A stretch of DNA of 62,289 nt, filler included, from an uncultured Methanosarcinales archaeon (lineage in GTDB: Archaea > Nanobdellota > Nanobdellia > Woesearchaeales > CAYSVS01): assembly GCA_964589485.1 (NCBI GenBank). It is 2 parts of 2 records of this genome, joined end to end, with 100 filler letters (N's around TTAATTAATTAA, not from the genome) between each part and the next. Parts side by side here need not be neighbours in the genome. Positions count along the whole stretch, not along the records: positions 1 to 31,350 come from CAZPRK010000012.1; 1 more part is not named here. One strand, given 5' to 3'. Numbering within the stretch: the first letter of the stretch is position 1; each line of letters starts with the position of its first letter. Below, one piece after another: positions 3,820-41,200 of the stretch. Below the pieces are notes generated by a model. That model was not told the origin of the DNA. It ran no database searches and was given only the letters and a program-made list of their open reading frames with translations. The translations under genes were made by a program, and so were the position numbers.

Positions 3820-4596
3820 TTAATCTCCAAGATATTTTCTAAGTTCTCTTGTTTTTTCTATTGCTAAATTAACCATTTTGTCAACATCATCAATTGTCAA
3901 AGCAGTAGCATTTCCTTTTTGTAAAGCACAAATTTCATCTTTTTCAGTTGTTGCAACTGTTAATCTTGAATCTGCAACTTTTTCTTCAGCATTTAATGGA
4001 TCAATAATGAATTTATCACCAATCTTTAATACTGTACAAGATAATGGTACTTTTGTTAATGGAAGAGTTTCATCAGTTTTTGTTTTAAAGTCAACTATTC
4101 CATCTTTTAATGCAGGAAGTCTTGCATTTCTGATTGCTGCAATTGTAGCTAATGCTCCTATATCAAATAAATTCCCTGCATCATTTATAGGGCAAATATC
4201 GACAATAACTGTCCATGCTTTTTCTCCTACAGTAACACAAAGTTTTTTGAAATCAATTGAATGACTTTCTCTTATTCCTCTATCGATAACTCTTGCTAAT
4301 TCGATAGCTTGAATTGAAGGAGGTCCTGGTTCAAATTTTGGTGAAGATAATGGTAATAATTCAACATTAACCATTAATGTTCCTTGATCTGGAGAATCAG
4401 GGTAGGGTGTTCCTAGTTCCATTTTAACTCCAGCCATTACTTTAGTTTCACCAATAGTTACTAAAGCACTTCCGTCTGCTGTTTTACTAACACCGTATTC
4501 AATAGATATTCCATCTCTGTATTGTTCCAGTTTTCTTCCATCTAATCGGTTGTCTTTTTCTAATAATTTATGAATATAGTCTGTCATTTTTTTCAT
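3820..4596 (-). CDS. rrp42: exosome complex component Rrp42
   Basis: RLDGR, ADGSALV, FEPGPP, ELARVIDRGIRES. Confidence 0.95.
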   Translation of the reverse strand: MKKMTDYIHKLLEKDNRLDGRKLEQYRDGISIEYGVSKTADGSALVTIGETKVMAGVKMELGTPYPDSPDQGTLMVNVELLPLSSPKFEPGPPSIQAIELARVIDRGIRESHSIDFKKLCVTVGEKAWTVIVDICPINDAGNLFDIGALATIAAIRNARLPALKDGIVDFKTKTDETLPLTKVPLSCTVLKIGDKFIIDPLNAEEKVADSRLTVATTEKDEICALQKGNATALTIDDVDKMVNLAIEKTRELRKYLGD

Positions 4597-5300
4597 TCCT
4601 CGTTATATTTTGCTTTTAGAGCATTTCTTTGTACATCATAAATTTCTTTTGCTGTTTTTTGTGCTACTTCTAAAGCTTCCTTTAAAATAGCAGTGTCAAC
4701 AATTCCGTCCATTTGTAATAATGAAATTTCTCCTGTTTGCGGTAAGATTGCTACTGGTATATCAGCAACACCGTTTTCACATTCTAATGCTTCTTCATCA
4801 TAGTTTAAATCTACAACAACTTTATCATCAACTTTACCAACAGCTACAGCTGCTACTAAATCTCTCATGATAAAACCTGCATCAGCTAATGCTAAAGATG
4901 CTGCGCATATTCCTGCACATCTACTTCCTGCATCTGTTTCAGGAAGTTCTATGTAAACATCGATTACTGAATTTGGAAATTCACTTAATTCCAATGTTGG
5001 TAAAAGTGCATTTTCTGTAACCATAGATATTTCTTTAGATCTTCTATTCGCTCCAGGTCTAACTCTATCGCCCATTCCGGAGAATGGCATCATGTTATAA
5101 TGACATCTTAAAACTGCTTTAGTTGGATCTGCTAAAAATTTAGGATAAATGTTTTTTGGACCATAAACAGCTGCATATGCTGTTGTTTTTCCAATCTTGA
5201 AGTATGCACTTCCGTCTGCATTTTTAATAACTCCAACTTTAGCTTCAATCTCTCTAAGTTCATCATGTTTTCTTCCGTCTAATCTTTTATCGTAACCCAT
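4593..5300 (-). CDS. rrp41: exosome complex component Rrp41
   Basis: RLDGRKHDELR, NADGSAY, RRSKEIS, DAGSRCA; likely start at 5300. Confidence 0.95.
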   Translation of the reverse strand: MGYDKRLDGRKHDELREIEAKVGVIKNADGSAYFKIGKTTAYAAVYGPKNIYPKFLADPTKAVLRCHYNMMPFSGMGDRVRPGANRRSKEISMVTENALLPTLELSEFPNSVIDVYIELPETDAGSRCAGICAASLALADAGFIMRDLVAAVAVGKVDDKVVVDLNYDEEALECENGVADIPVAILPQTGEISLLQMDGIVDTAILKEALEVAQKTAKEIYDVQRNALKAKYNEE

Positions 5301-5301
5301 T

Positions 5302-6018
5302 TTACTCACCACCTTGAACTTTAATCTCTGTTCCAGTTTTTTCTTCTAAGAAAGATTTCACTAAATCAGTTAATCCACTGGTATGAGCTTTTCTTTCAAT
5401 TAAATTAATTGTTTCAACTGCAATTAATTCTTTGTTAGGATCATCTCCTGCAAGCCAAACTAATCCGTTTTGACCAACTGTTAATCTACATCCTGTAGCT
5501 AACTTAATCATACTAACCATTGATCCTTTTTTTCCAATAAGTCTTGGAACTTTAGTAGGTGTAATTTTAACTATTCGTCCACCAACTAACTTTTTCAAAC
5601 CAGGTCCTTTCATTGATAAGTCAATTAATTTTTGACTTGTAACTGTTACAATTTTTGCAACAAGATAGTCATCAATTTTATAAATTTGACTTAAGTCTGC
5701 TCCTCTCTGAATAAAATCAGATGTAGCGTCTTTTACATTTAACATTGCTGTATACGCAGAATTTGTATCTGTGTTCCAACCAGAAAACATTATATCTCTA
5801 ACTTGAGCAATAATTGTATCTCCTTTTTTTGGAAGATACTTCCCAGCTAACGGAACTAATTTAATAGCTCTTCCATCAATGTATGTTAATCCTACTTTTG
5901 AAGCGAAAATATTCTCTCCACTTCTATAAGTTCCTATTCCAGGAAGGTAATCCATACCTTCGGCTACTTTTTCACCAGGAACTACAATTTCTTTTTCTTT
6001 TACTAATAATTTTCCCAT
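5302..6018 (-). CDS. rrp4: exosome RNA-binding protein Rrp4
   Basis: VVPGE, S1 domain, KH domain PRLIGKKGSM, VGQNGLVW. Confidence 0.95.
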   Translation of the reverse strand: MGKLLVKEKEIVVPGEKVAEGMDYLPGIGTYRSGENIFASKVGLTYIDGRAIKLVPLAGKYLPKKGDTIIAQVRDIMFSGWNTDTNSAYTAMLNVKDATSDFIQRGADLSQIYKIDDYLVAKIVTVTSQKLIDLSMKGPGLKKLVGGRIVKITPTKVPRLIGKKGSMVSMIKLATGCRLTVGQNGLVWLAGDDPNKELIAVETINLIERKAHTSGLTDLVKSFLEEKTGTEIKVQGGE

Positions 6019-6020
6019 TT

Positions 6021-6740
6021 TTAATTCACCATTTTACTATTTAATGTACCATGAGTTATTGAATTCAATTTATCAAAAAATTCTTCACTTAATCCCCCAG
6101 GAATTTCTATCTCTGTGATTAATTCTCCATCATTTCCCCATTTTTGATCTTTAATTTTAGACATACTCTTAATAATTCCCATACACTGTTGTGCGTAATT
6201 AGACTTTATTTGTAGTTCAAAAACTTTTGTATCAAATTTTATTGGTATGATTGGTCTTAAATTTTTAATCACATCATCTACTTGCTCTTCTGCAGAAGCG
6301 TACTCATTAATTCTAATTTTAGCTTCATCCATTGCGGCTTCAATTCTATTCTCAGGATGAGAATATCCAGTTTTTGGGTCAATTGCATTTGCATGGATAA
6401 TGTTAATCACTTTTCTTTTTTTTTCAGCTCTAAGTTTATCTCTATACTCAGAAGTTACTTGAATTTCACCTTGTTTTAAGATGATTTTTGCAATTTCTAA
6501 TACATCAGTAGTTCCAAAAAGCTCATTCATTTTTTCTTCAGATGCTAATAAACCTTTTTTAGCATTAGCAAATACTTTTTCGGCTTTTAAAACATCTTTA
6601 ATGTCAACATCTTTTCCTTGACTAAACTCAATAGCTAAATTAGGTTCTATATCTATTTCAAACTCTTCTCCGCCTTTTCTTAATTTTGCCAAGTTTAGAT
6701 TTCTAAACTTTTTTTGGTCTCTATCTACTTCGCCACTCAT
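6021..6740 (-). CDS. ribosome maturation protein SDO1/SBDS
   Basis: LRKGGEEFEI, ELFGTTD, NAIDPKT..HP..RIEAAM; position in exosome operon. Confidence 0.95.
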   Translation of the reverse strand: MSGEVDRDQKKFRNLNLAKLRKGGEEFEIDIEPNLAIEFSQGKDVDIKDVLKAEKVFANAKKGLLASEEKMNELFGTTDVLEIAKIILKQGEIQVTSEYRDKLRAEKKRKVINIIHANAIDPKTGYSHPENRIEAAMDEAKIRINEYASAEEQVDDVIKNLRPIIPIKFDTKVFELQIKSNYAQQCMGIIKSMSKIKDQKWGNDGELITEIEIPGGLSEEFFDKLNSITHGTLNSKMVN

Positions 6741-7471
6741 TTTTTCTTTTTCACTTCATTTAAAACTTTTTCAATTTTTGCTTTACTAAGTCTTTCAAAT
6801 GTTTTAGTTTTAGTTCTAATAAATGCAACATCTAATCTTTCTGCATTAAAATCATGATCTAAAACTTTTAATAATGCTTTAATAGATAACTTAATTCCTT
6901 CATCGACAGTTAAGTCATCCTTATACTCTTTTTGTAAAATTTCTTCAACTTCAGTTTCTGCTTCACCAATAATACTTACTTTATATTGAAAAAATATTCC
7001 AGTTGGATCTGTTTCAAATAACTTAGGTCCATCTTGATCTATTCCTGCAATTAATACTGAAACCCCAAAAGGTCGTAATCCTGCTGATTGCGTACAAATT
7101 TGTTTTAAGCTACTAATATCTTTAACAATAGATAATGTGTCAATTGCAGTATCGTAAGTAACTCTATGTTGTTGAGCTTTTATTTGCGCTCTTTCAATTA
7201 ATACTCTTGCATCTGAAATTATTCCTGATGCTGTAGCTCCGATATGTTCATCAATTGTCCATATTTTTTCAATTGCATCTGAAACTACAAATTTATCAAC
7301 AATTCTTTTATCAGTAATTAATATTACACCGTCTTTACAAACCATACCTATTGCAGTACTTCCTTGTTTAACAGTTTTTTTTGCATATTCTACTTGAAGT
7401 AGCCTTCCATCCGGGCTAAACATTGTGATGGCTCTATCATATCCCATCATTTGATGATTCATTGGTTGCAT
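6737..7471 (-). CDS. psmA: proteasome subunit alpha
   Basis: GYDRAITMFSPDGRLLQVEYA. Confidence 0.97.
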   Translation of the reverse strand: MQPMNHQMMGYDRAITMFSPDGRLLQVEYAKKTVKQGSTAIGMVCKDGVILITDKRIVDKFVVSDAIEKIWTIDEHIGATASGIISDARVLIERAQIKAQQHRVTYDTAIDTLSIVKDISSLKQICTQSAGLRPFGVSVLIAGIDQDGPKLFETDPTGIFFQYKVSIIGEAETEVEEILQKEYKDDLTVDEGIKLSIKALLKVLDHDFNAERLDVAFIRTKTKTFERLSKAKIEKVLNEVKKKK

Positions 7472-17249: not shown

Positions 17250-19394
17250 TTAAACTTTCAAAGAAATTCTATTATATGTTTCTGCACCTCCTTCTTCATC
17301 ACCAATTACTGCATCTAAAGAAATCTCTTTATTAGTACTTTGCATGAGTTTAAAGTATCTAGCTGCAGTATAAATGAAATTTGTTAATTTACCTACCCTA
17401 TCCACATTATACTTTAATTTTATTGCATAAACATCCATGTGAGAACTACAATGTGTAAGTGCTTCATCAATGAAAGGAACTTGATATTTTTCAGCAAAAT
17501 AGCTATGAGTTTTTATCAACCAAGAACTGGTTTGCTCTCTAACTTTCTCATCAAAGGAGTATAACAACCTACCTGCCTTATATAGAAGCTTTTGTTCTTC
17601 TGATTTAGAAATACCTTCAAAAGTTTCAATGGGCTTTAAAGTTTGTAGAACTTTGTAATCTTCTTTAATGCTATCCTCTATATGTTTCGAAGAATCTTTA
17701 TCCCCTGTAAATAGTTCAACAATATACTTTATTGCTTTTCCTGTACATGTCTTGGTAAGTAATTTTCTTAATCTAATATAATCTATATCTTCTTCAGTAA
17801 ATTTATCTTTAATATCAGGAAGACTTTTTCCTCCAGCTACTAAATTTGTGAAGTATTTTACTTCCGAAACCCATAGAGTAGGAGCTGAATATTTTTTCTC
17901 CCAGTTTTCCTCAAAAGTCCTATCTTCGTTAGAAATAAGTTGAGAAATGATTTTCCAATTTGAAAAAAAGGCATTAGAAGCATCCTGAAATTTTCTTTTT
18001 AAACCATATTTTTGTTTTAATTCTTCAAGTAAAACTATCAGCCCTGCTTTATTACCATATATTTCAAAAAATGAATCCGAATCCATGTCATACTTGAATT
18101 TCAAATAATCTACTGCAAGCTTAATAGTATCACATGAAACACCGATATTTTTAGGATCCCAATTTTCTCTAAATTGTTTATTATCTTGAACACCTAAAAT
18201 ATCTTTAATGATTTTCTTTCTTGTTACAGTATCTAATAAATGTTTACTTGCTCTGTATCCAGCTTCATTCAAAATATCATCATATAAATTAACTATTCCA
18301 CTTTCAATTCCATATCTTTCAAAAAAAAGTCTAGTATCTTGAAAATACTTTTTCTTTAGAAAATTAATTGTATTCATAACTTCATCGTATGTTCCTTCAA
18401 TTTGCCCGTGTTTCCAAGAAGTTCTAAACCTATCATCTGAAACTTCAAGTAAAGCTTCCAAAGTAGTTCCACTATTAAACATTGTTTTTAATAAAGTAAA
18501 ATTATGTTTAACGCCAGTTTTTCTTTTTATTAACTCTGTAATCTTTAGCGGGCCTAATTTTGAACCATATGCTTCAAAAAAGTGATCACTATCTCTTTGA
18601 TATTCTTCTCTAAATAAGTTCAAAATAGCAGTTTTATTATTTAATTCAGATGAAATATATCTTGGGTTATACCCGACCAAATCATTAGAATCAATATTCA
18701 ATATATATGCAAGAACTTCTGGGTCTTTAACCAAAGAGGTTATAGCATTAGCATTAGACCTAATTTGAAGTTCCTTTTTTAATCTATCTTGAAGGTTACT
18801 TATCCCCAATACTCCACCAAATTCTTCCATAAAATATTCTTTACCTTTAGCATATTCCTTTTTTAATAAATCAGAAATTCTATCTATTTGCTCTAAACTT
18901 AGTAATATAGATTTTGGGTTCCAATCTTTAAAATCATTTATATCTAAATCACAAACTTTAGCCATTAGCTCTGGATTTTTTATGAAAGAGTTTAGAATGT
19001 TTAAATTCATTCCATACCCCATCTTAGCTAAATCTCTAGCTAAAATTATTCCTCCTTGCCTACTCCCATATTTTAAAAAGAATGCTTCACCAAGTATTTC
19101 ATATTTCTCTTTCACTAAATGTAAAAAAGCATCTTTTTGCTTCCTTGTTAAAGTTACACGTGCTGGATTCCAATATTCTTTAAATCTTTTATCTTCTACT
19201 CCTAGAAAATCTTCTATGGTAGAGCTATTGAAAAAGGTCACAAGTTCTTGACCTACAGAGTTTATGTTTAACTCCTTCTTCAAGTCATCAGCTAAATTAA
19301 TCAATCCATCTATGGAACCATATCTTTCTATAAATTCATCAGAGTTTCTAGAATAAGCAGCAATTGCAAAATTTTGTATTTTTAAAACGTTCAA
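17250..19394 (-). CDS. C-terminal part of giant repeat protein (6 repeats plus sigma70-like tail)
   Basis: repeated F[FI]ExYG..G...L / F...W.P motifs; tail with KYNVDRVGKLTNFIY and EISLDAVIGDEEG. Confidence 0.75.
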   Translation of the reverse strand: MNVLKIQNFAIAAYSRNSDEFIERYGSIDGLINLADDLKKELNINSVGQELVTFFNSSTIEDFLGVEDKRFKEYWNPARVTLTRKQKDAFLHLVKEKYEILGEAFFLKYGSRQGGIILARDLAKMGYGMNLNILNSFIKNPELMAKVCDLDINDFKDWNPKSILLSLEQIDRISDLLKKEYAKGKEYFMEEFGGVLGISNLQDRLKKELQIRSNANAITSLVKDPEVLAYILNIDSNDLVGYNPRYISSELNNKTAILNLFREEYQRDSDHFFEAYGSKLGPLKITELIKRKTGVKHNFTLLKTMFNSGTTLEALLEVSDDRFRTSWKHGQIEGTYDEVMNTINFLKKKYFQDTRLFFERYGIESGIVNLYDDILNEAGYRASKHLLDTVTRKKIIKDILGVQDNKQFRENWDPKNIGVSCDTIKLAVDYLKFKYDMDSDSFFEIYGNKAGLIVLLEELKQKYGLKRKFQDASNAFFSNWKIISQLISNEDRTFEENWEKKYSAPTLWVSEVKYFTNLVAGGKSLPDIKDKFTEEDIDYIRLRKLLTKTCTGKAIKYIVELFTGDKDSSKHIEDSIKEDYKVLQTLKPIETFEGISKSEEQKLLYKAGRLLYSFDEKVREQTSSWLIKTHSYFAEKYQVPFIDEALTHCSSHMDVYAIKLKYNVDRVGKLTNFIYTAARYFKLMQSTNKEISLDAVIGDEEGGAETYNRISLKV

Positions 19395-21408
19395 GGTTTA
19401 GATAGAGTTTATTAGTTTTCCAATTATTAAAAAAAGCTTTATCTTTAGAATTTAATACTGTTGCAATAAATGCACCATCTTTGAAAAATGAAGAGATGTT
19501 TTGTAAATTTAAATATTCACCACTTTTTTCAAAAACATTTTTTACAAAGTGAAATGCTCCTAACTTTTTGTTGAATCTTTCAAGAAAAGAACCATTATCT
19601 TCATCATAAATTTCTTTTAAATGTTTAGTCATTATTTCCAAGTCTGATTCATCAATTTGCGAAGATTTAACCTTCCAATCTGTTTCGAAACGGGCATCTT
19701 CCCTTTCTATCATTTTAGCAACATCTTCTCCATTCTTAAAAACACCTGAAATTTTAGTTAACGTTGGGTTAAAATCCTTATTCATACCATAGTTTAAGGA
19801 ATTAAAGAAAGTTATAGCTTGTTCATCATTTTTCACTTCATTTAGAGTTAATAAAAAACCATATTTTGAACCATATTTCTCAAAAAAAGTATCTGGGTTA
19901 GAATCATACTTTCTTTTTAAGAAATCAATTATTGTTTCTGTTGTATGAAAATTAGTTAGTAAAGTGTTTGGTTTCCATTCCAAATTAAACCTTGGTGAAA
20001 AAATGTCCAAATAATGCTGAATAACTTCAGGTTTGTTAAAAGACCTTAAAGCAAGTAAATATATTGTAAATTTTGTTTCTTCAAATAAGTCTTTAGCCAG
20101 AAAATAATTTCCAATTCTTTGTCCATATCTTTTAAAAAAAAAATCTTCATCTTCCGCAAATTTTGATTTGAGAAAGTTAACTATTTCAACTTTTTTATGA
20201 CTGGTTGTGCCCACCTCTCTAACTTTCCATTCTCTCTTAAATCTATTATCTTCGATAGAAAGATACTCTGTTAGTGCTTCTCCATGTATCAAAAAATTAT
20301 TTAAACTCATAAATCTTAAACCTAGAGGAAACCTAGTTGAAATATCCTCCAATACGTTATCAATACCTACTTTTGAACCATACCTTTCAAAAAATAACTC
20401 TTTATTTTCATGATATTTAATTCCTAAATAATTCATTAAAAATTTCATATTCCGAAGGTTGTTTAACGACTTTTTAACTTCGATGTGTGGTTCAATTTCC
20501 ACCAAGTTAACGCCCAATTCTTCTTTTAACACATCTGGGCTTTTTAAACTCAAATATAACTCATCCAGTTTTGCATCATTAACACCTAAACGTTGAGCTA
20601 AATCTTCACCTAAGTATAAGGTACCTAGAACTCCACCATATGTTTTAAGATATTCTTCTTTTCCTAGAAGCCATTTAGCTTTAATTAATTCTTTAACCTC
20701 TGTATTAATGAAATCAATAGTATAACAGTTGCTTAATAATTTCCTGTTCTTTCTAGCTTGAACTTCTTTTTCTAAAAGTTCCAATTCAGCTTGAGATAAT
20801 CTATCATCAAAGGTTTTTGTTGCTATATCATTAGCTGTTGGTTTCATATCACTTATAAATTGCTGCTCAATTACTAATGTATGACCATCAACCCTTGTCA
20901 TCATAGAAGGTGAAACTTTAACCTGATGAAGTAAATCACTAAGAGTAGTGTTTGAAGAATAAATATCATAAGTATGTGCGTAATCTAAAAAGTTTAAAGT
21001 TTCTTCAATTTGAGGTTTACTTTCTTTTCGTTCAATAGAAGCTTTTACTTTTGAAGTTACAAATTTATCTGCTAGTAGAGATAAAACACTTGAATGTACT
21101 TTTAAAGTATGACCTTCTCTTTCAGATGTATTTTCATTCAAGACTTTGACCAAATCTCTTAAAGAATGCCCTCTTTCATACAATTTTAATTTATGAGCTA
21201 TTTCGATAATATCTAACTCTTCTTCTTGAACGTTACTATATAAATTATTTCGAATAGTTTCCAATGAGCTTTCTGGAATCATCCATGTATGTCCTTGAAT
21301 ACTTGAATTTTTATCATCAGAAATAACTTTAACTAAATCTCGCATATCTTTACCATTCTCATTTAATTCAAGTTTATGAGCAACTTCTAACAAAGTTAAT
21401 TCTGTCAT
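19348..21408 (-). CDS. N-terminal part of giant repeat protein (3 HTH-like repeats plus 5 repeats); frameshifted relative to 17250-19394
   Basis: same repeat family as downstream ORF; repeat register continues across the overlap. Confidence 0.75.
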   Translation of the reverse strand: MTELTLLEVAHKLELNENGKDMRDLVKVISDDKNSSIQGHTWMIPESSLETIRNNLYSNVQEEELDIIEIAHKLKLYERGHSLRDLVKVLNENTSEREGHTLKVHSSVLSLLADKFVTSKVKASIERKESKPQIEETLNFLDYAHTYDIYSSNTTLSDLLHQVKVSPSMMTRVDGHTLVIEQQFISDMKPTANDIATKTFDDRLSQAELELLEKEVQARKNRKLLSNCYTIDFINTEVKELIKAKWLLGKEEYLKTYGGVLGTLYLGEDLAQRLGVNDAKLDELYLSLKSPDVLKEELGVNLVEIEPHIEVKKSLNNLRNMKFLMNYLGIKYHENKELFFERYGSKVGIDNVLEDISTRFPLGLRFMSLNNFLIHGEALTEYLSIEDNRFKREWKVREVGTTSHKKVEIVNFLKSKFAEDEDFFFKRYGQRIGNYFLAKDLFEETKFTIYLLALRSFNKPEVIQHYLDIFSPRFNLEWKPNTLLTNFHTTETIIDFLKRKYDSNPDTFFEKYGSKYGFLLTLNEVKNDEQAITFFNSLNYGMNKDFNPTLTKISGVFKNGEDVAKMIEREDARFETDWKVKSSQIDESDLEIMTKHLKEIYDEDNGSFLERFNKKLGAFHFVKNVFEKSGEYLNLQNISSFFKDGAFIATVLNSKDKAFFNNWKTNKLYLNLERFKNTKFCNCCLF

Positions 21409-22088
21409 TTTTCATGTAACTTTTCAAATAAATATTTTTCAAACGTGTAAACTTTCAGATCCTGATTAAGTCCTTTATCAAAAACATTATAAGAATCTAC
21501 AAGTTCGCTTAAATTAATAGAAGATTTTTTTGGAATTATTGGAGCAAACAACCTGATTAATTCTTTTTTAGCAGCTTTTCTAACTTTAGGATCATAACTA
21601 GTTAAAAGCCTACCAAATTGAAATTGTAGATACTCACCAGAATCTCTTTCATGTGTTTTTAAATCAAAAATACTATGATATTTGGAACTTTGTCCAATAT
21701 AATTTTTTAAACCCTGTTTATCCCAATCAATATACCTCCCAATTCTTTCATATACTCTATCTTGCTCACTTTTTGAAACATATAACTCAACCATTTTAGA
21801 TAGAGCTTCCAAATTAGAATTTTTGGATCTACGGTGTTTCATAGATGAAAAGGCTCGGCCTATAACTTTTTTATAGTTTATTTTATTATCATTAAAAAGA
21901 AAAGCTATTTTTCCTGACTTATAACTTTTCAACCCAACTAATGTTTTAATTAAAGTTGATTTACCACTTCCAGACCTACCAACTAACCCTAATATATCTC
22001 CGCTATTTAATTTAAAAGTAATATGACTTATTCTAAAGTTACTATAAGTACTAACAAGGTTATTTACCTTAAGACAAACATTATCCAT
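21405..22088 (-). pseudogene. chimeric ORF: truncated ABC ATPase N-terminus fused to a paralog of the sigma-like tail
   Basis: Walker A GRSGSGKST but no Q-loop, signature or Walker B; GRLLTSYDPKVR matches GRLLYSFDEKVR of 17250-19394. Confidence 0.65.
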
Positions 22089-31350: not shown

Positions 31351-31450
31351 NNNNNNNNNNNNNNNNNNNNNNNNNNNNNNNNNNNNNNNNNNNNTTAATT
31401 AATTAANNNNNNNNNNNNNNNNNNNNNNNNNNNNNNNNNNNNNNNNNNNN
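31351..31450. other. artificial contig-joining linker
   Basis: 44 N + TTAATTAATTAA (stops in all six frames) + 44 N. Confidence 0.95.
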
Positions 31451-34400
31451 CACTTACATTAATATGATAAAAACCAACAGGTAAGGTAAAGTTATGAGTT
31501 AAGTTGCCATTAGTTATATTAAATCTGAAAGTGTCATTAATAAAATACTGATCGATAGCTACATTATCACTTGCATTAAAATCAACTAAAAATCCACTTC
31601 CTAATTCAACAGTTATGTTATTTGGATATTCATCCCATGTTGGTTTCTTTAAGTCAGGTAACGGTTCTGTTAAAAAAATAGGGTAACTTAATCCATCATT
31701 CATTTGCCATACATTATTAAAATCCCAACCTTGGTTTGTAAATGTTGATTGTGTTTGCATGATTGCGGTAGTATTTCCACTCATTCCATCATCTTCACCA
31801 TTTCCTGTTGCATTCATGTTTGGATTTAAAGAACTATCAAAGAAAATTCCAGATGCATAACTATTAGGTATTGACTTTCCAACTATTCCACCAGCATTAT
31901 TAGTTCCATTTGTAATATTTCCAGCATAATAAGAAGTAGTAATATTAAAATTCTTTCCAAAAACATTTGAACTAATTTTTCCAACTAATCCACCTACAAA
32001 ATCATTTCCACTTACATTCATAGTACTATAAGTATTGTTCCAAAATTCTCTTGATTGTTCAGTATATCCATAAAAACCTCCGACATTATCATTTCCTTTA
32101 ACAATTCCTTTAGAATAAACATTTAATGCACTTCCTCCTTCATATTTATATCCCAAAAGCCCACCTACTTGATCACCTGTAGAATTTACATTTCCCTCAA
32201 AAGATACATTAATTAATGTACCCATAAATCTTGCATCTCCAATTAATCCTCCAACTTTCACATTAATTCCAGATCCAACTTTATTTGCACTTATATTCCC
32301 TTTAACATGAACATTTGTTAAATTAGCTCCTCCTGTAGTATCTGATGTTTTACCAATTAAACCCCCAATATAACCTGTTACAGTAGTATAAGAAGTTACA
32401 TTTAGTCCAGTTATATTGATATCTCTAAGAATTGGTAAACTATTAACTTCAGTATATCCTATCAATCCACCAGTATAAGATTTTCCTGCAGAAGTTAAAT
32501 TATGAAAACTAACATTGCTAATTATTACATTAGTTTCAACTTTTGTAAATAACCCTACATAATTTTGATTCTCATCCATAAGAATATCATTAACAATATA
32601 TCCTTTTCCTTCAAAACTTTTATTATATTTTGTAACTGCTCCATCATATATGTCATTATACCAATTTGTAAAACTTATGCCTGAACAGTTAATATTGTTT
32701 CTTAATTCAATCGCTTCATTTGCTCTTATTGCATCTTGCATTTGAGTACAATTTTTAATTGAAATAATGTGAGTACTTTCTGCAGTTAATGTTTTATGAC
32801 TTGGTTCGGAACAAGTTACTGAATAATCATGTTCAAAGCTACTACTAAAACTCATAGTTTTATTATATATCAAAGAAGTTGAGTTCCATGACATTTCATA
32901 AACTGTTCCATTATTGTTAAAAGTAATATTACAACTTGCTCCACTAATTCCAGCTCCAGTATTTGTATCTGAATAATTAGCAATAAAATTAATTACTTGG
33001 TTGAACCCTTCACTTCCTGTGTATGCTGAAGTAACTGTTAAATTAGAATTCATTGAAGCAATTCCTGAATGTGTTAACCCTGATAAAATGTAAGTATCTT
33101 CATAAGAACAAGTGATACTTTTTCCATTAATTGTTTTTGAATTTTCACCCATACAATCAGATATTTCAAACTTAGCTTCATCTGATTCAGAACAATCTGT
33201 TGAAAAATTATCTATACTTTCAACTCTTGAATCTTTTACACAAATTGCAGTATTATTTATTATTGCAGTTTTTGTTGTTTTATTCAAATATCTTTGAAGA
33301 GTTAATTCATTTACAACCATACCGTTTAATAATTTTTCAATTTTAATTTCTTCTCCTGTTTTTAATAATTCCAATTGATGAGTTGAAAAGTTATGATTAA
33401 ATGAAACAGTATTATTATCTCCATCAGTTATGTTTACGGTTTGTAATCCAGTATAAGTGTTGTTTAATGTTTCAGATCCAGATATTAATAAAGTAGCATT
33501 AAATCCTATTGCATTAATATTACTTTGATTTCCAATTAAACTATCTTTAATATCTTCAACTCCATCTCCATCGAGATCTTCCCAGAAAAAATAATGTATA
33601 GGATATGAACTTTCAGTTCTCCAAATATTAGTTAAATCCCAATTTGTAAATGTTCCATTTTGCTTTAATTGCCATGTTAATTTACCAAGGACGTTTGCGT
33701 TATTTGAAGGTTTACTACTTCCACCCATAGGTCCTTGAATTAATGAAGTGTCGTTATCATAAAAGTTATCTCCCAAATTACCACTTCCTGTATCTCCTAA
33801 AAAAGCTCCTACATATGCATTAGATTTGTTAATTATTCTACCTGCAAAATAATTTCTATATAAATTGCTAGATGTTCCGTATTCACCTCCGAAACCACCT
33901 AAATATAAACTTCCACTTGTTAATGTTGATTCTACAGTTGAATGAGAAAAACTATCATTAATTTCTGTATAATATGTTACCCTACCTGCAAAACCTCCTA
34001 TATAAGAGTTACTTCCTTTTACTTTACCTTTAGAAAAGGATCTAATGAAATAATTGTATTTATTGGATTGTCCATAACTATATCCTGTAAAACCTCCAAC
34101 ATATTGATCACCTTCTACATTACCAATAAATGAACTATCATAAACTGATGTATTATCGTATGCATAACCTATAAATCCACCAATGTAATCGTCAGATCCA
34201 ATAACATTTCCTTTAACATGAGAATTATTTACAAAAAAATATGAAGAATCTTGATTACTTCCTACAAGTCCACCTATATTATCTACATCAATGTCATAAG
34301 ATGAAATAGAAACTGTTAGATTGATACCTATTATATTAGTTTTTGAATAAGCTTTTCCTATTGCTCCACCAATGTCTCTTACTATCCCTACAACTGAAAT

Positions 34401-35087
34401 ATTACCTTGACTATCTACTAATTTTAAATTTTCAGAATAACCAACAAATCCTCCTACGTTAATTTCACCTTGTATTTTTCCAAAGACTCTAGAATTATTA
34501 ATTATTGTACCAAATCCGTTTGGTGAAGTTGCTCCGATGATTCCGCCATTTTTATCGTCTTTAGTAACTAAAGTACCATTAAATGTAACATTAAAAAATG
34601 TTGAATTTTCAGCATATGCTACAATACCCCCCGCATAATCTTGACTACTCCCTGTATGATTAATAGAAGCGTTAATATAAACATTAGTTATATTTACATT
34701 TAAAGCTTGACCGATCAATCCACCTGGAGATGTTCCTGCTTTTATTGTTAGATTTTGTAATATAATATCTCGTACTATAGAATTTTTAGCAATTGGGATT
34801 AATCCAACATATTGGCTACTATATGAGCTAGTAGTACCAGTTAAAGTTAGGTTAAATATAGTAAAATTATTTCCATAAAAATTTTCAGTAAAAGTTGCAA
34901 CATTTCCCGATCTCCAATCACCAAAATCTACACCAGCACAATTAAGATTTGAAGTAATATTTGTTTCATTATTATTTTCTATAGATGTTTTTAAATCTTC
35001 ACAATTTGCAACATTATTTATTCCTGCAAGAACAGTAGAACTACATAAAACTAATACAAAAACTAATAATACCCCTCTTTTCCTCAA
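31451..35087 (-). CDS. large secreted surface protein with two GLUG-motif domains; C-terminus lost in gap
   Basis: signal peptide; many VGG[LF]xG repeats; DLDGDGVED Ca-binding-like motif; ends in a cadherin/Ig-like repeat. Confidence 0.85.
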
Positions 35088-35236: not shown

Positions 35237-38200
35237 TTATTTCAATAATCTATTAATTACAGAAACTGGCCATTTTTTATTTTTAAGTTCACTATGTATT
35301 TTTTCAACACTATGACCTTTTTTTAAATGGTTTAATACATAATCTTTTGCTAAATTTAAGTGTTTTACGTCTAGTCCTGGGATTCTTCTAATTTTTAAAA
35401 CGTTAGTATATATAACAATTGATTCAATTAATTTATGTGAACACTTTTTTTCTTCCAATTTTCTTGATATTTGGTTAATTGTATGACCTTTTGCAAGCAT
35501 ATTTTTCACATATTTTAAAACTATTATGAAGTTATCTTGACTAAATTTACTTATGTGTGCATTGTTTATACTTTTTGTTGTTTGTATTAAATTACTAAAT
35601 TTATGTAATAAAGTTTGAAACTCTTTAGCTTCTTCATAAACTGTTTTTTTAGATGCTTTTTTATTTTTGATCATTATGTGTTGTTTTAAACTAATTACTA
35701 TTTTTTCAAAGTCGTGTAACTCTTTATTAACTAGTGAAGATGTTTTTCTTTTTTCAGTTTTAATGAAATCATGAACAAAATGTATTAATTTTTCAAAGTA
35801 AATTTTTTCTTCATTTAATACGTTAGCTAATTTATTTTTATCTTTTTTAAGTGTATTTTTAAGATACATACCTAATTTGTGTTTTAAATCATTAATATCA
35901 CTAAATATGTTTTCTTTTTTATTTTTAGGTGGTTTATTTAAAACTGAGTATAACGCAAAAATAATTCCTATTGTTAATAATATTACTAAAATAATAGAAA
36001 CGAATCCACTTTTAGAAGTTTTTTCTTCTATTAATTCTGGGCTTTCTATGATAGGTTCTTTAATTTCTTCAATAACTTCTTCTTCCTCCTCTTCTATTAC
36101 TTCTTCAACTATTTTTTCTGTTTCAGTATCTTTTAATGAAATTGCAAAGTAACTAAATCCAGGTGTTTCTGCTGAATAATATACATAAGTAGAATCTTCT
36201 TTAGTAACTTTAGTTTCTAATTTATTCCACTCATTATTATATCTAAATAATGCGATATCATCTTTATTTTTATTTCCTATCCATGACTTTTTAACTTTAA
36301 AATTAATTTCAGCTTTTTCTATTTTTACTGCGCTTTGTAAACTAATATCTTCATATTTGTATAGTTTACCTTCAACTGTTTCTGAAGTAGGATTTTTATC
36401 TAGTGTAATTACTTTTAATCTAACTCTTATCGTTTCTTCAGTTGGGAATACCTTTACTGATTTAATTGTAGATAGACTACTTTCTACATCAAATATATGA
36501 GGTGAATTTATTGTGTAATATTTACTATAAAATTCATTACTTTCTAATTTTGTTGGTGCGTTTGAAATTCCTCCTCCTGAGCTTCCTCCAGATGAACTAC
36601 TTGAACTTGAAGAACTACTACTTGATCCACCTGAGCTAGGAGCTTTACTTCCTTGGCTTTTAGTTGCAGTAATGAAAGTTGAGAAGTGACTTACATTTGC
36701 TTCGTATGTAATGAAATCTCCAACGTTACTTACATTAGTTGTATTTAATTCTTCAAATGAAGTAGTACTTCCTGATTGTGTTGAATATAATGAAATATTA
36801 TTGTATGAAATATTTTGTGCATTTAATTTTGCTTTAGCAACTTTAAAAGTAATTATTGAGTCCATACTTGTATTACTTGTATTTGATTCAATGTCAAAAG
36901 AAGTGAATGTTGGTACAGTATAAAGAGTTGTAAATTCAGATGGAACAGTAACTCTTACTGTTAAATTAATTGAAGCGTCTACAGGTAGGTCTCTTAATTT
37001 TTCAACAGTGTTTACTACAATTCCAGTGAAATTAGCATCACCTGATCCTAATGTTGGTGTTGCAGATAACCCAGTTCCAGATATAATTACAAAAGAATAA
37101 TTAATTATTCTTAAATTACTTTGATTATCCCATATTCTTAAGTATAATGTTTGGTTTTGAACTGAAGTGTTATAGTATGGTAATATATTTGTATTGTTTG
37201 AATTTATTGCACTTCCACTATTTAATAAATTAATTAATGTTCCATTTGTTGTTGTTAAAGTAATATTTGCATATTCATTAACTCTAATATTAAAGCTAGA
37301 TAATGACACTGAACTTGCGTTGATAACACTTCCATTTACTATATCTAAGACTCTTATTGCAGGAGAAGTAGTATCGTTAACAAATACAGTTATTAATGTT
37401 GAGTTTACATTATTACTTGTATCATTAACACTTACATTTATGTGGTATGTTCCTAAATTAATTATGGAAGCGTTTGTTAAATATCCTGAATTATTTATTG
37501 TAAATCTACTTGTATCATTTATAAAATATTTACTAATAGAGTCTCCATCTGAAGCGTTAATATCGACTGTTATTTTTCCTGTGTATAATTCAGCTGTAAT
37601 GTTTTGAGGAATTTGATCCCAAGTAGGTGCACTTAAATCTGAAACAACTAATGCAAATGTTAAACTGTTTACATTGTTGTATGTGTCATTTACTGATATA
37701 TTAATGTTATATGTTCTAGGTGATAATGCTGAATTGTTTTCAAAGTATCCACTTGAATTAATTTTAAAATTAGTTGAATCATTTAAGAAATATGTGCTAG
37801 TATTACTAATATCTGTTGAATTAATTTGAATAGCTAAGCTATTTGTAATATTAATAGTTTTATTACTTGGAATTTGAGTAAAGGTAGGTCCTGTTGTATC
37901 TTGTACGGTTATTATTAAGTTTAAATTGTTAGCATTGTTACTAGTATCGTTTACACTAACATTAATGTGATATGTTTGTATTGTTAATTTAGTTTTGTTG
38001 ATTAATAAACCACTAAAACTAATGTTGAAGTTAGTTGTATCGTTTACAATGAATTGACTAATTCCATTTGAATCTGTTGCATTAATATTAATTGATAATG
38101 ATTCTGTGTGAAATTCAATTGATCTATCTGCAGGAGTCTGAGTAAAGCTAGGTACTCCTACATCATTTACTGTTAATTTGAATGTAATACTGTTTACATT

Positions 38201-41200
38201 ATTGTATGTGTCATTTACACTTACATTAACAAAGTACACTTGAGCTGATAAATTAGTGTTGTTAATTAATACACCATTGAATGTAATGTTAAAGTTAGTT
38301 GTATCATTTATGAAGAATCTACTTATTCCGCTTGCGTCAGTTGCATTGATATCTAATGATAACGATTCATTACTTGATATACTTCTGTTTGCTGGAATTT
38401 GAGTAAAAGTAGGTGAAGTAGCATCTTGGACTGTAGCACTTAAAGTTAAACTACTCACTAAATTGTTTGTATCATTAACACTTATATTAATATAATATGT
38501 TCTTATAGATAATGCAGTTGAGTTGATTATAACACCAGATTGACTAATGTTAAAGTTTGTTGTATCGTTAATAAAGTACCTACTTAATCCGCTTGAATCT
38601 GATGCATTTACGTCAACTGATAAAGCATCAGTTAAATATTCTAATGTTAAATTACTCGGAATTTGGTCAAATGTTGGTACTGATGAATCGCTAATTGTAA
38701 CTGAGAAATGTAAATCTTTAATGTTATTTAATGTATCATTAACACTTATATTAATATGGTATGTTTTTGAAGATAAATTAGTGTTGTTTTCTAAGTACCC
38801 ACTTGAATTTATTTTAAAGTTAGTTGTATCGTTTACTTTGAATGAACTTAATCCTGATGAATCAGTAGCATTTAACTGTATAGCTAATGCAGTTGTAGTA
38901 TTTAATGTTCTATTTGATGGAATTTCTGTATAACTAGGTCCTGTAGAATCTTGAATAGTTACACTAAACATTAAACTGTTTACATTATTACTAGTATCAT
39001 TTACACTTACATTCACTAAAATTGTTCCTGTAGATAGTAATGTTTTGTTTGTTAATACACCTGATTGACTTATATTAAATCTAGTAGTATCGTTAATGAA
39101 GTATTTGTCTAATGCAAGATCTGTTGCATTAATATTGACTATTAATGTATCAATTCCATATTCTATAGTTTTATTTTGAGGTATTTCCGTGAAGGTTGGA
39201 GCACTTGAATCCGTTACAGTTAATGCAAAGTGTAGATCTTTAATGTTATTTTGAGTATCATTAACTGAAATATTTACGTGATATGTTCTTACACTTAAGT
39301 TAGTGTTATTTTCAAAGTAACCTGATGAATTAATTTTAAAGTTAGTTGTATCATTAACTTTAAATGAACTTATTCCCGATACATCCGTAGAGTTAATTTG
39401 AATTGCTAATGCACTACTTACATCAATACTTCTATTTGCTGGTATTTCTGTATAACTTGGAGTTGTTGTATCTTGGATAATAACGCTAAACATTAAGTTA
39501 TTTACATTATTGCTAGTGTCGTTGACACTTACATTTACTAAATATGTTCCAATAGATAATAATGTTTTATTAGTTAAAACTCCTGATTGGCTAATGTTAA
39601 ACCTCGTAGTGTCGTTGATGAAATACTTGTCTAAACTAGTATCTGTTGCGTTTATGTCAACTGATAAAGAATCTGTTGAATATTCTATTGTTTTATTTTG
39701 TGGGATTTCGGAAAAAGTTGGTGCAGTTGAATCTGTTACTGTTAATGCAAAGTGTATATTTTTAACATTATTTTGAGTATCATTAACTGAAATATTAATG
39801 TGATATACTTTTGAAGATAAGTTAGTATTATTTTCAAAGTAACCTGATGAATTAATTTTAAAGTTTGTTGTGTCGTTAACTTTGAATGAACTTATTCCAC
39901 TTGTGTCTGTTGCATTAATTTGTATTGCTAATGCACTACTTACATCAATACTTCTGTTTGCAGGGATTTCAGTAAATGAAGGACTTATTGTATCACTTAT
40001 AGTTACTTTGTATATTGTGTAATTTACATTATTTTGAGTATCATTTACACTTACATTTACTTCATGAGTACCTACAGCTAATAAAGTGTTATTAAGTAAT
40101 GTACCGGATGAGTTAATTACAAATTTAGTTGTATCATTTACTTTATATTCACTTATTGTATTTTGGTCAGTAGCAGTAAAGGTTACTTGTAAGCTACCTG
40201 TTAAATATTCTAAAGATGCATTTTCAGGGATAGTAAGCCAAGTTGGAGCAATGGTATCCTGTATAATTACTTGGAAGAATAAATAATTCACATTATTGTA
40301 TGTATCATTAACACTAACGTTAACTACATGAGTTCCGATAGCTAAAGGTGAACTATTTTGAAGATATCCTGTATTGTTAATTGTAAATTTACTACTACTG
40401 TTAACTTCCCAATGATCAATGTTAGATACATCAGTAGCATTAATTTGTATTGCAATGCTTTCTACTTCAAATTCTTGTGTTAGGTTTTGTGGAATCTGTG
40501 TAAATGAAGGAGAAGTTGTATCTTGTACGATTATAGATATTATTAATGAATTTACATTGTTGTTTGTATCATTAACGCTAACATTAACTAATATTGTTCC
40601 AATGCTTAAGTTAGTGTTATTTTCAAAGTAACCTGTTGAATTAATTTTAAAGTTAGTTGTGTCATTTACAAAGAAGTTTGAAATTCCACTTGCATCTGTT
40701 GCGTTTATATCTGTTGCTAAATTTTCACTAAAGTATTCTATAGTTTTATTTTGTGGTATTTGTGTAAATGTCGGAGCATTTGTTTCAGTAACAGTTAACG
40801 CAAAGTGTATACTTTTAACATTATTTTGAGTATCATTAACTGAAATATTTACATGATAAACAATTGCACTTAAATTAGTGTTATTTTCTAAGTAACCTGT
40901 TGAATTAATTTTAAAGTTAGTTGTATCGTTTACTTTGAATGAACTTATTCCACCTGCATCTGTTGCGTTTATTTGTATAGCTAAGTTAGTTGTTGAATCA
41001 ATGCTTCTATTTGCTATTGCTTGAGTAATGCTTGGAGAAGTTATATCTTGTACAGTTACTGAGAATATTGTACTATTTCTATTATTACTTGTGTCATTTA
41101 CTGTAACATTTACTAAAGTTGTTCCAACAGCTAATAATGAACTGTTAATTAATAGGCCACTTCCATTTATACTAAATCTAGTTGTATCGTTTACAAAATA

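Follow-up and report, generated by a model that had tools for sequence, protein, structure and literature searches.

A giant repeat gene of a DPANN archaeon, split by a frameshift, whose tail is predicted to resemble sigma factor domain 2

What kind of protein carries an array of tandem repeats and ends in a sigma-like tail in an archaeon? The question is raised by positions 17250 to 21408 (minus strand) of a 62,289-nucleotide stretch of DNA (hereafter the window) from an uncultured archaeon placed in the Woesearchaeales (assembly GCA_964589485.1). An earlier note had read this region as a giant modular protein with three helix-turn-helix (HTH) units of the excisionase/MerR type, about 11 novel repeats of ~84 residues (aa), and a degenerate sigma-like tail. 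We believe that the best explanation is a transcription-associated repeat protein with a tail that would derive from sigma domain 2, encoded by a gene that is frameshifted here, and we give this explanation an even chance of being right. The locus lies on contig C12 of the genome (G000), which supplies window positions 1-31350; the window joins separate contigs via runs of N and a short spacer word (seen at 31351-31420).

The region is made up of two overlapping open reading frames (ORFs), A and B, and the eleven repeats are spread over both.

19348-21408, minus strand: ORF A, 686 aa, N-terminal half of the family gene; its start overlaps the stop of a neighboring frame, ORF U (see below), by 4 nucleotides
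17250-19394, minus strand: ORF B, 714 aa, first start codon TTG, C-terminal half of the family gene
19348-19394, minus strand: overlap of the A and B frames, 47 nucleotides, which holds a net +1 frameshift and lies in the linker between repeats 5 and 6
20464-20721, 20209-20463, 19957-20208, 19657-19956, and 19402-19656, minus strand: repeats 1 to 5, all in ORF A
19152-19394, 18903-19151, 18651-18902, 18396-18650, 18141-18395, and 17886-18140, minus strand: repeats 6 to 11, all in ORF B

The register of the repeats is unbroken across the A/B junction. Counted by eye, the distance from the last Trp of repeat 5 to the Tyr heading repeat 6 is 67 nucleotides, compared to 69 nucleotides (23 codons) at three other junctions. 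Because the register continues and the spacing is 67 rather than 69 nucleotides, ORFs A and B are parts of a single gene that carries a net +1 shift, not two genes by design. If read through the frameshift, the product would be about 1,390 aa long. The sequence at the frameshift is identical, with no insertion or deletion, in the Logan contigs of sequencing runs X1, X4, and X5, which are all three of the run assemblies covering the site and come from two studies. Since the letters are identical in these assemblies, we take the frameshift to be real and not an assembly slip. Run X5, which shares the frameshift sequence, is not flagged as a possible source, and run X6 does not bridge the site. 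Programmed +1 frameshifting was considered and rejected, as inspection by eye found no slippery site with a stop or rare codon in the shift window and the relatives of the gene are intact.

The eleven repeats (five in ORF A and six in ORF B) are 81 to 100 aa long and 18 to 31% identical to the first one; repeat 4 contains a 15-aa insert. All eleven were recovered at expectation values (E) of 1.8e-5 to 6e-19 by an independent profile, which was built from 120 repeats of 13 other proteins, none of them from the window, so that the check is not circular. Elsewhere in the genome, the same profile found only two more units at E ≤0.01, both in a weak paralog on contig C3. The consensus of 131 family repeats reads l...e.i..FLk..Y.eDpd.FF.RYGS..G...LakDL..e.g....l..Lssll.dg..ls.lLGi.D.RF.t.WnPr.I. 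No sequence match to the repeats was found in Pfam, NCBIfam, PHROG, PADLOC, or the PDB; the best PDB sequence match of the repeat profile had an E of 0.66, and the ESM Atlas gave no usable match for three repeats. The modular anatomy is as proposed in the earlier note, and its novel repeats of about 84 aa were confirmed by a profile that owes nothing to this locus.

Long tandem arrays of divergent helical units are also known from the HEAT, Armadillo, TPR, and Sel1 scaffolds. Close orthologs within the present family keep the positional identity of each repeat, as do scaffolds with position-specific roles. In contrast, the family unit of 84 to 85 aa has its own signature (FF.RYGS..G ... LGI.D.RF...W.P) and matches none of those Pfam families. 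A one-to-one mapping of the 11 repeats onto the 9 to 10 repeats of the relatives was rejected, with the best matches being scattered. Two proteins with weak matches to the repeat profile, P0032 and P0037 (580 aa each), have instead a more regular repeat of ~60 aa in near-identical copies; it may be distantly related to the 84-aa module or match the profile by chance.

The repeats are followed by a tail of 211 aa, in which three parts were delineated.

17637-17885, minus strand: tail residues 1-83, a conserved helical linker domain with the motifs ..LP.. / YL.LR / ..veLf.., from family alignments
17334-17633, minus strand: tail residues 85-184, a helical domain predicted to be like sigma factor domain 2, in which the G, L, Y, S, and R of the GRLLYSFDEKVR motif are invariant across the family
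17253-17333, minus strand: tail residues 185-211, an acidic C-terminal segment with the family SLD motif, with a predicted local distance difference test score (pLDDT) below 50

The motifs of the tail make up a family-wide signature, G.LLYSFD..[IV]R ... SLD, near the C terminus. Nine columns (L22, R40, L58, G105, L107, Y109, S110, R116, and S189) are invariant in 14 tail sequences, and the tail hidden Markov model (HMM) scores ORF B at 3.2e-62. With the 14-row family alignment as input, AlphaFold (AF2) returned a tail model with a pLDDT of 81.3 and a predicted template modeling score (pTM) of 0.76. The model is all-helical with residues 185-211 disordered, and its linker domain consists of helices at residues 2-17, 31-46, 49-60, and 65-83 (block pLDDT, 69 to 97). 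A model from the single sequence was useless (pLDDT, 40).

We used the modeled tail residues 85-188 in an unbiased structural search of 48,161 representative chains, and the top match was sigma factor domain 2. Sigma chains filled 10 of the first 11 rows, with SigW, WhiG, and SigE lower down, and the match to 5h6x_B covered 83 of 96 residues, nearly the whole domain. When the structural comparison was repeated as a second look, the top four rows were again sigma chains. The closest known structures are thus those of sigma-70 domain 2 (regions 1.2 to 2.4), namely, Escherichia coli sigma-32 (8hkc), Legionella RpoS (5h6x), and pro-sigma-K (8vjl). Traces of further sigma regions were seen in two relatives. 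In P0007, a sub-threshold match to Sigma70_r3 (E, 0.0023) comes right after the domain-2-like part, in canonical order, and in P0005, a near-threshold match to Sigma70_r4_2 (24.9 versus 25.7 bits) lies before the domain-2-like part and not after it; a precomputed annotation of P0005 names Sigma70_r4_2 as well. ORF B itself has no Sigma70_r4 match and ends 22 residues past the SLD motif, so that it is without region 4.

In comparison with sigma-70 factors, then, the family has no significant sequence match, lacks regions 3.0 and 3.1 in most members, and lacks region 4; its domain comes last in a protein of 1100 to 1400 aa, in an archaeon with a eukaryote-like polymerase. A reduced sigma factor of this general kind exists in phage T4, whose late sigma gp55 is cut down to a domain-2-like core and works without region 4, being a small stand-alone protein of a bacterial virus. 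The idea common to both would be that the clamp-binding domain-2 part is kept and the remainder is supplied by other proteins. Unlike gp55, the family domain is fused to a giant repeat array, and gp55 was absent from the lists of the fold searches. We also considered whether the ORF B tail could be the decayed C-terminal half of an ABC ATPase and rejected this candidate: there is no ABC_tran match, the model is all-helical without strands, and the resemblance is an ungapped motif coincidence. Genuine ABC sequence is confined to ORF U and the contig C3 paralog.

At the other end of the protein, three units precede the repeats.

21235-21408, minus strand: N-terminal unit 1, ORF A residues 1-58, HTH-like by pattern alone, no Pfam match
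21055-21222, minus strand: N-terminal unit 2, ORF A residues 63-118
20824-21003, minus strand: N-terminal unit 3, ORF A residues 136-195

These units are mutually homologous, each with an E of 1e-22 to 1e-26 against a 5-row profile (the profile includes them), and the unit is present singly at the N terminus of the relative P0001 and in the contig C3 paralog. By eye they are like the excisionase-type HTH (HTH_17) in having a short helix pair and then a strand-like Gly-His-Thr segment; they differ from it in being about 10 residues longer and in matching no HTH model at E up to 10. A PDB sequence search with the N-terminal 200 aa gave nothing meaningful (best E, 0.36). A true HTH_17 occupies the same position in the relative P0029 (28.5 bits, with a cut-off of 27), and a profile of the ORF A units fails to find it. 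Kinship of the HTH units with sigma region 4, or of the repeats with sigma or with the HTH units, was rejected (hhalign P, 0.05 to 0.24).

A survey with a repeat HMM was carried out with HMMER on 1.84 billion (1.84e9) representative proteins. It yielded 38 family representatives at E ≤0.001, of which 17 were at E ≤1e-30. The typical relative is a single intact ORF of 1068 to 1401 aa with 9 to 10 repeats and the same tail. At 466 aa, P0029 is the minimal member, with HTH_17, one repeat, and the tail, while shorter members of 520 to 883 aa have a different N-terminal domain, three to four repeats, and no tail. Homology searches by word index gave no match for either ORF A (377-1201 aa) or the tail alignment (116-665 aa), and a longer search returned only ORF B itself and P0005. 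The only database name that we saw for the family is the record of one member as a hypothetical protein of a Candidatus Nanoarchaeia metagenome-assembled genome, and full-text searches of the literature gave no description of the family. This is an uncharacterized family of DPANN-type (Nanoarchaeia) archaea, of which the gene at 17250-21408 is a member. The new findings are the fold result obtained for the tail, the triple N-terminal unit, the eleventh repeat, the frameshift, and a pair of reciprocal chimeras described below.

Across the phylum, the repeat was found in 7 of 401 sampled genomes, the genome studied here included, and in none of the 40 nearest relatives of that genome, two of which belong to the same genus. 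Five of the other family-bearing genomes have intact frames of 1152 to 1315 aa with no internal stops. In three of the five other genomes examined, the giant gene is part of a conserved co-directional operon with the order X (about 279 aa), Y (about 155 aa), Z (about 272 aa), giant, W (about 180 aa), and in a fourth genome, the giant is accompanied by Z and a short family member. Pfam, PHROGs, PADLOC, and NCBIfam gave no match for any of X, Y, Z, or W. We found no X, Y, or W homolog in the genome studied here, and its sole Z-like gene is on contig C3; the locus at 17250-21408 has lost its operon partners. In one family-bearing genome (G260, locus L029), a 256-aa sigma-like gene (4418-5185, plus strand; Sigma70_r4, 4.6e-8; Sigma70_r2, 7.4e-6) and a regulator with XRE-type HTH and CBS domains (5203-5793, minus strand) lie 1 to 3 kb upstream of the X-Y-Z-giant-W operon.

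The earlier note had started from the premise that archaea use TBP and TFB rather than sigma factors, and this needs a qualifier. At least one sigma-70 gene was found in 20 of 41 related genomes, in 19 of them above the Pfam cut-off. In the genome studied here, contig C7 carries a pair of genuine sigma-70 genes side by side, at 4992-6137 and 6153-7100 (both minus strand), which encode 382 and 316 aa and lie between ABC transporter genes. Sigma70_r2 scores the first at 71.6 bits and the second at 33.2 bits, and inspection by eye shows regions 3 and 4 as well. Castelle et al. (2021; PMC8204110) describe sigma-70 genes in DPANN archaea, especially Woesearchaeota, with no anti-sigma factors and an unclear role; how such factors work beside TBP, TFB, and TFE is treated there as an open question. 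The canonical DPANN sigma-70 family of that paper (fam00359) and the giant family occur in the same organisms and in the same genome, and both would be bacterial-type sigma-like modules in archaea. The canonical proteins are 270 to 700 aa long and score up to 83 bits on Sigma70_r2, and one in G260 matches Sigma70_r4. In contrast, the giant family is above threshold on none of those Pfam models, and its body is wholly different.

How far can the sigma-like reading of the tail and the transcription-associated reading of the protein be trusted? A number of our own results weigh against them. Pfam Sigma70_r2 (PF04542) matched 0 of 24 family sequences (ORF B and its tail at E up to 10 and 23 others at E up to 0.05), whereas the same model finds the two genuine sigma genes elsewhere in the genome. 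The tail has no Pfam match of any kind at E up to 10, and a search of the PDB with the family profile gave no matches. Foldseek searches with the tail model returned nothing at E ≤0.001, either against the PDB (best E, 0.82) or against the BFVD viral models. When the 14-row tail alignment was compared by hhalign to 37 archaeal sigma sequences, taken from this genome and its relatives, the local best was the SLD segment and was not significant (P, 0.088). A relaxed hhalign run was colinear over 120 columns, with the family motif falling on regions 2.1, 2.2, and 2.3 and SLD on SLD, and was also not significant (P, 0.054). At the N terminus, the first 203 aa of ORF A have no match to HTH_17 (PF12728), to any other HTH, or to any Pfam model at E up to 10, and the HTH identity of the units is at the motif level only, with no statistical support. 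Further, the giant family does not track canonical sigma factors: a Sigma70_r2 gene is present in three of the five other family-bearing genomes, against a background of 20 of 41. Lastly, both halves of the frameshifted gene are still open, at 2.1 kb each in a genome of 27% G+C, which we counted against decay of the local copy.

The outcome for the earlier proposal is therefore mixed. The degenerate sigma-like tail is partly supported, with the answer being no by sequence (no Sigma70_r2 match; hhalign P, 0.05 to 0.09) and a qualified yes by predicted structure (domain 2 at the top of 48,161 chains). The three N-terminal units are real and homologous to one another, while the label of excisionase/MerR-like HTH describes a pattern with no Pfam match behind it. 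The earlier note had named two findings that would speak against it, a tail without a structural match to sigma region 2 and repeats that belong to a known non-DNA-binding family. We found sigma domain 2 as the top structural match of the tail model and repeats without a match in any collection searched.

These results can be read in other ways. The tail could be an ordinary helical bundle with no link to sigma and the family a cytoplasmic helical-repeat scaffold for a complex with its operon partners, unrelated to transcription. We consider this somewhat doubtful but take it seriously, as it would explain why Foldseek came back empty from the PDB and BFVD, why Sigma70_r2 and hhalign gave nothing significant, why X, Y, Z, and W have no known domains, and why there is no co-occurrence with canonical sigma genes above background. 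It is harder to square with the structural ranking, since sigma domain 2 in 10 of the 11 top chains, with 83 of 96 residues of 5h6x_B covered, is hard to obtain by chance. The colinear sequence alignment that ends at the SLD motif in both families and the sub-threshold region-3 and region-4 matches beside the domain in two relatives also speak against a bundle that has nothing to do with sigma.

Phage sigma-like proteins bring to mind a takeover factor of a mobile element or virus that redirects the RNA polymerase of the cell, in which case the local copy would be the decayed remnant of an integrated element. The very patchy distribution (7 of 401 genomes across the phylum and none of the 40 nearest relatives, two of the same genus among them) would fit such an origin, as would the compact operon, whose genes are orphans and next to which one genome has an XRE-type HTH/CBS regulator, and the rearranged and frameshifted state of the local locus. 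Neither the giant nor its partners match PHROG or PADLOC, though, and the scanned neighbors included no integrase, capsid, or replication gene. With the G+C content of the locus equal to that of its surroundings and the Foldseek search of BFVD empty, we regard this origin as quite improbable. The earlier note had also raised the possibility of an effector, which in its full form would be a secreted or injected protein that acts on host transcription via a degenerate sigma domain. DPANN archaea are thought to be symbionts (PMC8204110), and the tail fold is predicted to be sigma-2-like, both of which would suit an effector. By eye, no signal-peptide-like or membrane segment is seen at the N terminus of ORF A or of the relatives inspected, the conserved operon has no secretion genes, and the gene is broken in this genome. 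The known hosts of DPANN archaea, moreover, are themselves archaea and have no bacterial polymerase. We found no support for an effector and give the idea very little credence.

We therefore return to a transcription-associated repeat protein, for which the following mechanism is proposed. In bacteria, the helical sigma domain 2 binds the clamp coiled-coil of RNA polymerase as well as the -10 element, and the HTH of region 4 recognizes the -35 element and binds the flap; sigma relatives without region 4, such as T4 gp55, also dock on the clamp coiled-coil. Lacking region 4, the tail of the giant may be a sigma-2-derived module by which the protein docks on this coiled-coil. The HTH-type units at the N terminus differ from member to member and may tether the protein to DNA or to another factor, and the repeat array may act as a scaffold that carries the operon partners, making the family a transcription-associated scaffold or regulator. 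A bolder form of this proposal, which is speculative and which we think unlikely, is that DPANN archaea captured a bacterial sigma domain 2 and fused it to the 84-residue array to make a polymerase-docking scaffold. The tail would then be predicted to occupy the clamp coiled-coil of the eukaryote-like archaeal polymerase, competing there with TFE or Spt4/5; the array would bear the four operon partners, and DNA sites would be selected by the variable HTH units.

The gene content of the window is archaeal. The assembly is 1.16 Mb, 99.9% complete by markers, and has about 27% G+C, and the G+C content of 17250-21408 is the same as that of its surroundings. Pfam matches round the locus include eIF2-alpha, three exosome subunits, SBDS, proteasome alpha, and Pop5, as well as a split Rpb1-type RNA polymerase subunit and a NusA-like KH protein. 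Compared to the two genomes of the same genus, no synteny is kept beyond a P-type ATPase gene (52.9% and 48.6% identical). A scan for sigma-70-type promoters gave 27 sites versus 30.3 expected, and there was 1 terminator versus 1.1 expected, which is no excess of either. In the other part of the window, from a contig other than C12, there are two further giant ORFs, both on the minus strand. The one at 35237-44032 (2931 aa) has no Pfam match, and the one at 31395-35087 (1230 aa) has the GLUG motif alone in Pfam.

Immediately upstream of ORF A lies ORF U, a chimera that joins the head of an ABC ATPase to a fragment of the family tail.

21405-22088, minus strand: ORF U, 227 aa, chimera of an ABC ATPase head and a family-tail fragment
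21849-22088, minus strand: ORF U residues 1-80, ABC ATPase head with Walker A, which ends just before the Q-loop
21522-21824, minus strand: ORF U residues about 89-189, family-tail fragment with part of the linker domain and the start of the sigma-2-like domain (FGRLLTSYD..VR)
96091-98184 of contig C3 (same genome), minus strand: the reciprocal chimera, a 698-aa ORF with a family head and an ABC ATPase body

In ORF U, Pfam ABC_tran matches at 1.5e-12 over protein residues 21-114 (profile positions 2-90 of 137), and in a BLASTP comparison with the most similar intact ABC ATPase in this genome, the alignment is confined to reference residues 1-87. The tail fragment matches the family-tail HMM at an E of 1.5e-12 over profile positions 68-160 of 240 and is 46% identical to the ORF B tail over 26 aa (BLASTP). 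The ORF on contig C3 starts with one N-terminal unit, followed by a helical domain common to P0001 and the short members, two to three weak repeats, and a tail that breaks off after its first ~25 residues. The rest of the ORF is an ABC ATPase from the Q-loop on (reference residues about 88-218; ABC_tran profile positions 58-137), and the ORF is followed by an ABC-2-type permease; its BLAST alignment spans reference residues 69-218, with 69-87 nearly without identities.

Put together, the C3 and U parts give a composite tail with 36 residues, compared to 38 in ORF B by our own count. Both junctions carry an imperfect 9-nucleotide common stretch, and they complement each other in both parent genes. 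Because of this complementarity, the simplest reading of the sequences is that an ABC ATPase gene and a second, shorter family gene were both broken by one illegitimate reciprocal exchange between them. On the simplest reading, too, the second family gene once stood upstream of A/B, in an order as in genome G189. The U/C3 pair would then be a clean example of a reciprocal illegitimate exchange that makes two chimeric genes.

As for the local copy of the giant gene, the break is either recent or tolerated, because both halves remain open. The copy is likely to be in decay or, at best, to function in the form of two polypeptides. Given the frameshift, the missing operon partners, and the rearranged upstream gene, we lean slightly toward decay as its present state. 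Being broken, this copy matters less for function.

For the biology of these archaea, the family would place beside the canonical sigma-70 factors of the same organisms a second sigma-2-like module, which has diverged much further and is joined to a stretch of about 1,000 repeat residues without known relatives. If the tail docks on the archaeal polymerase, the family would provide a testable entry into the role of sigma factors in DPANN archaea, and a new repeat fold would be defined. Should the proposed capture prove true, archaea would possess a new class of transcription machinery that incorporates a bacterial part, and the family would give a first clue to the function of archaeal sigma-like proteins.

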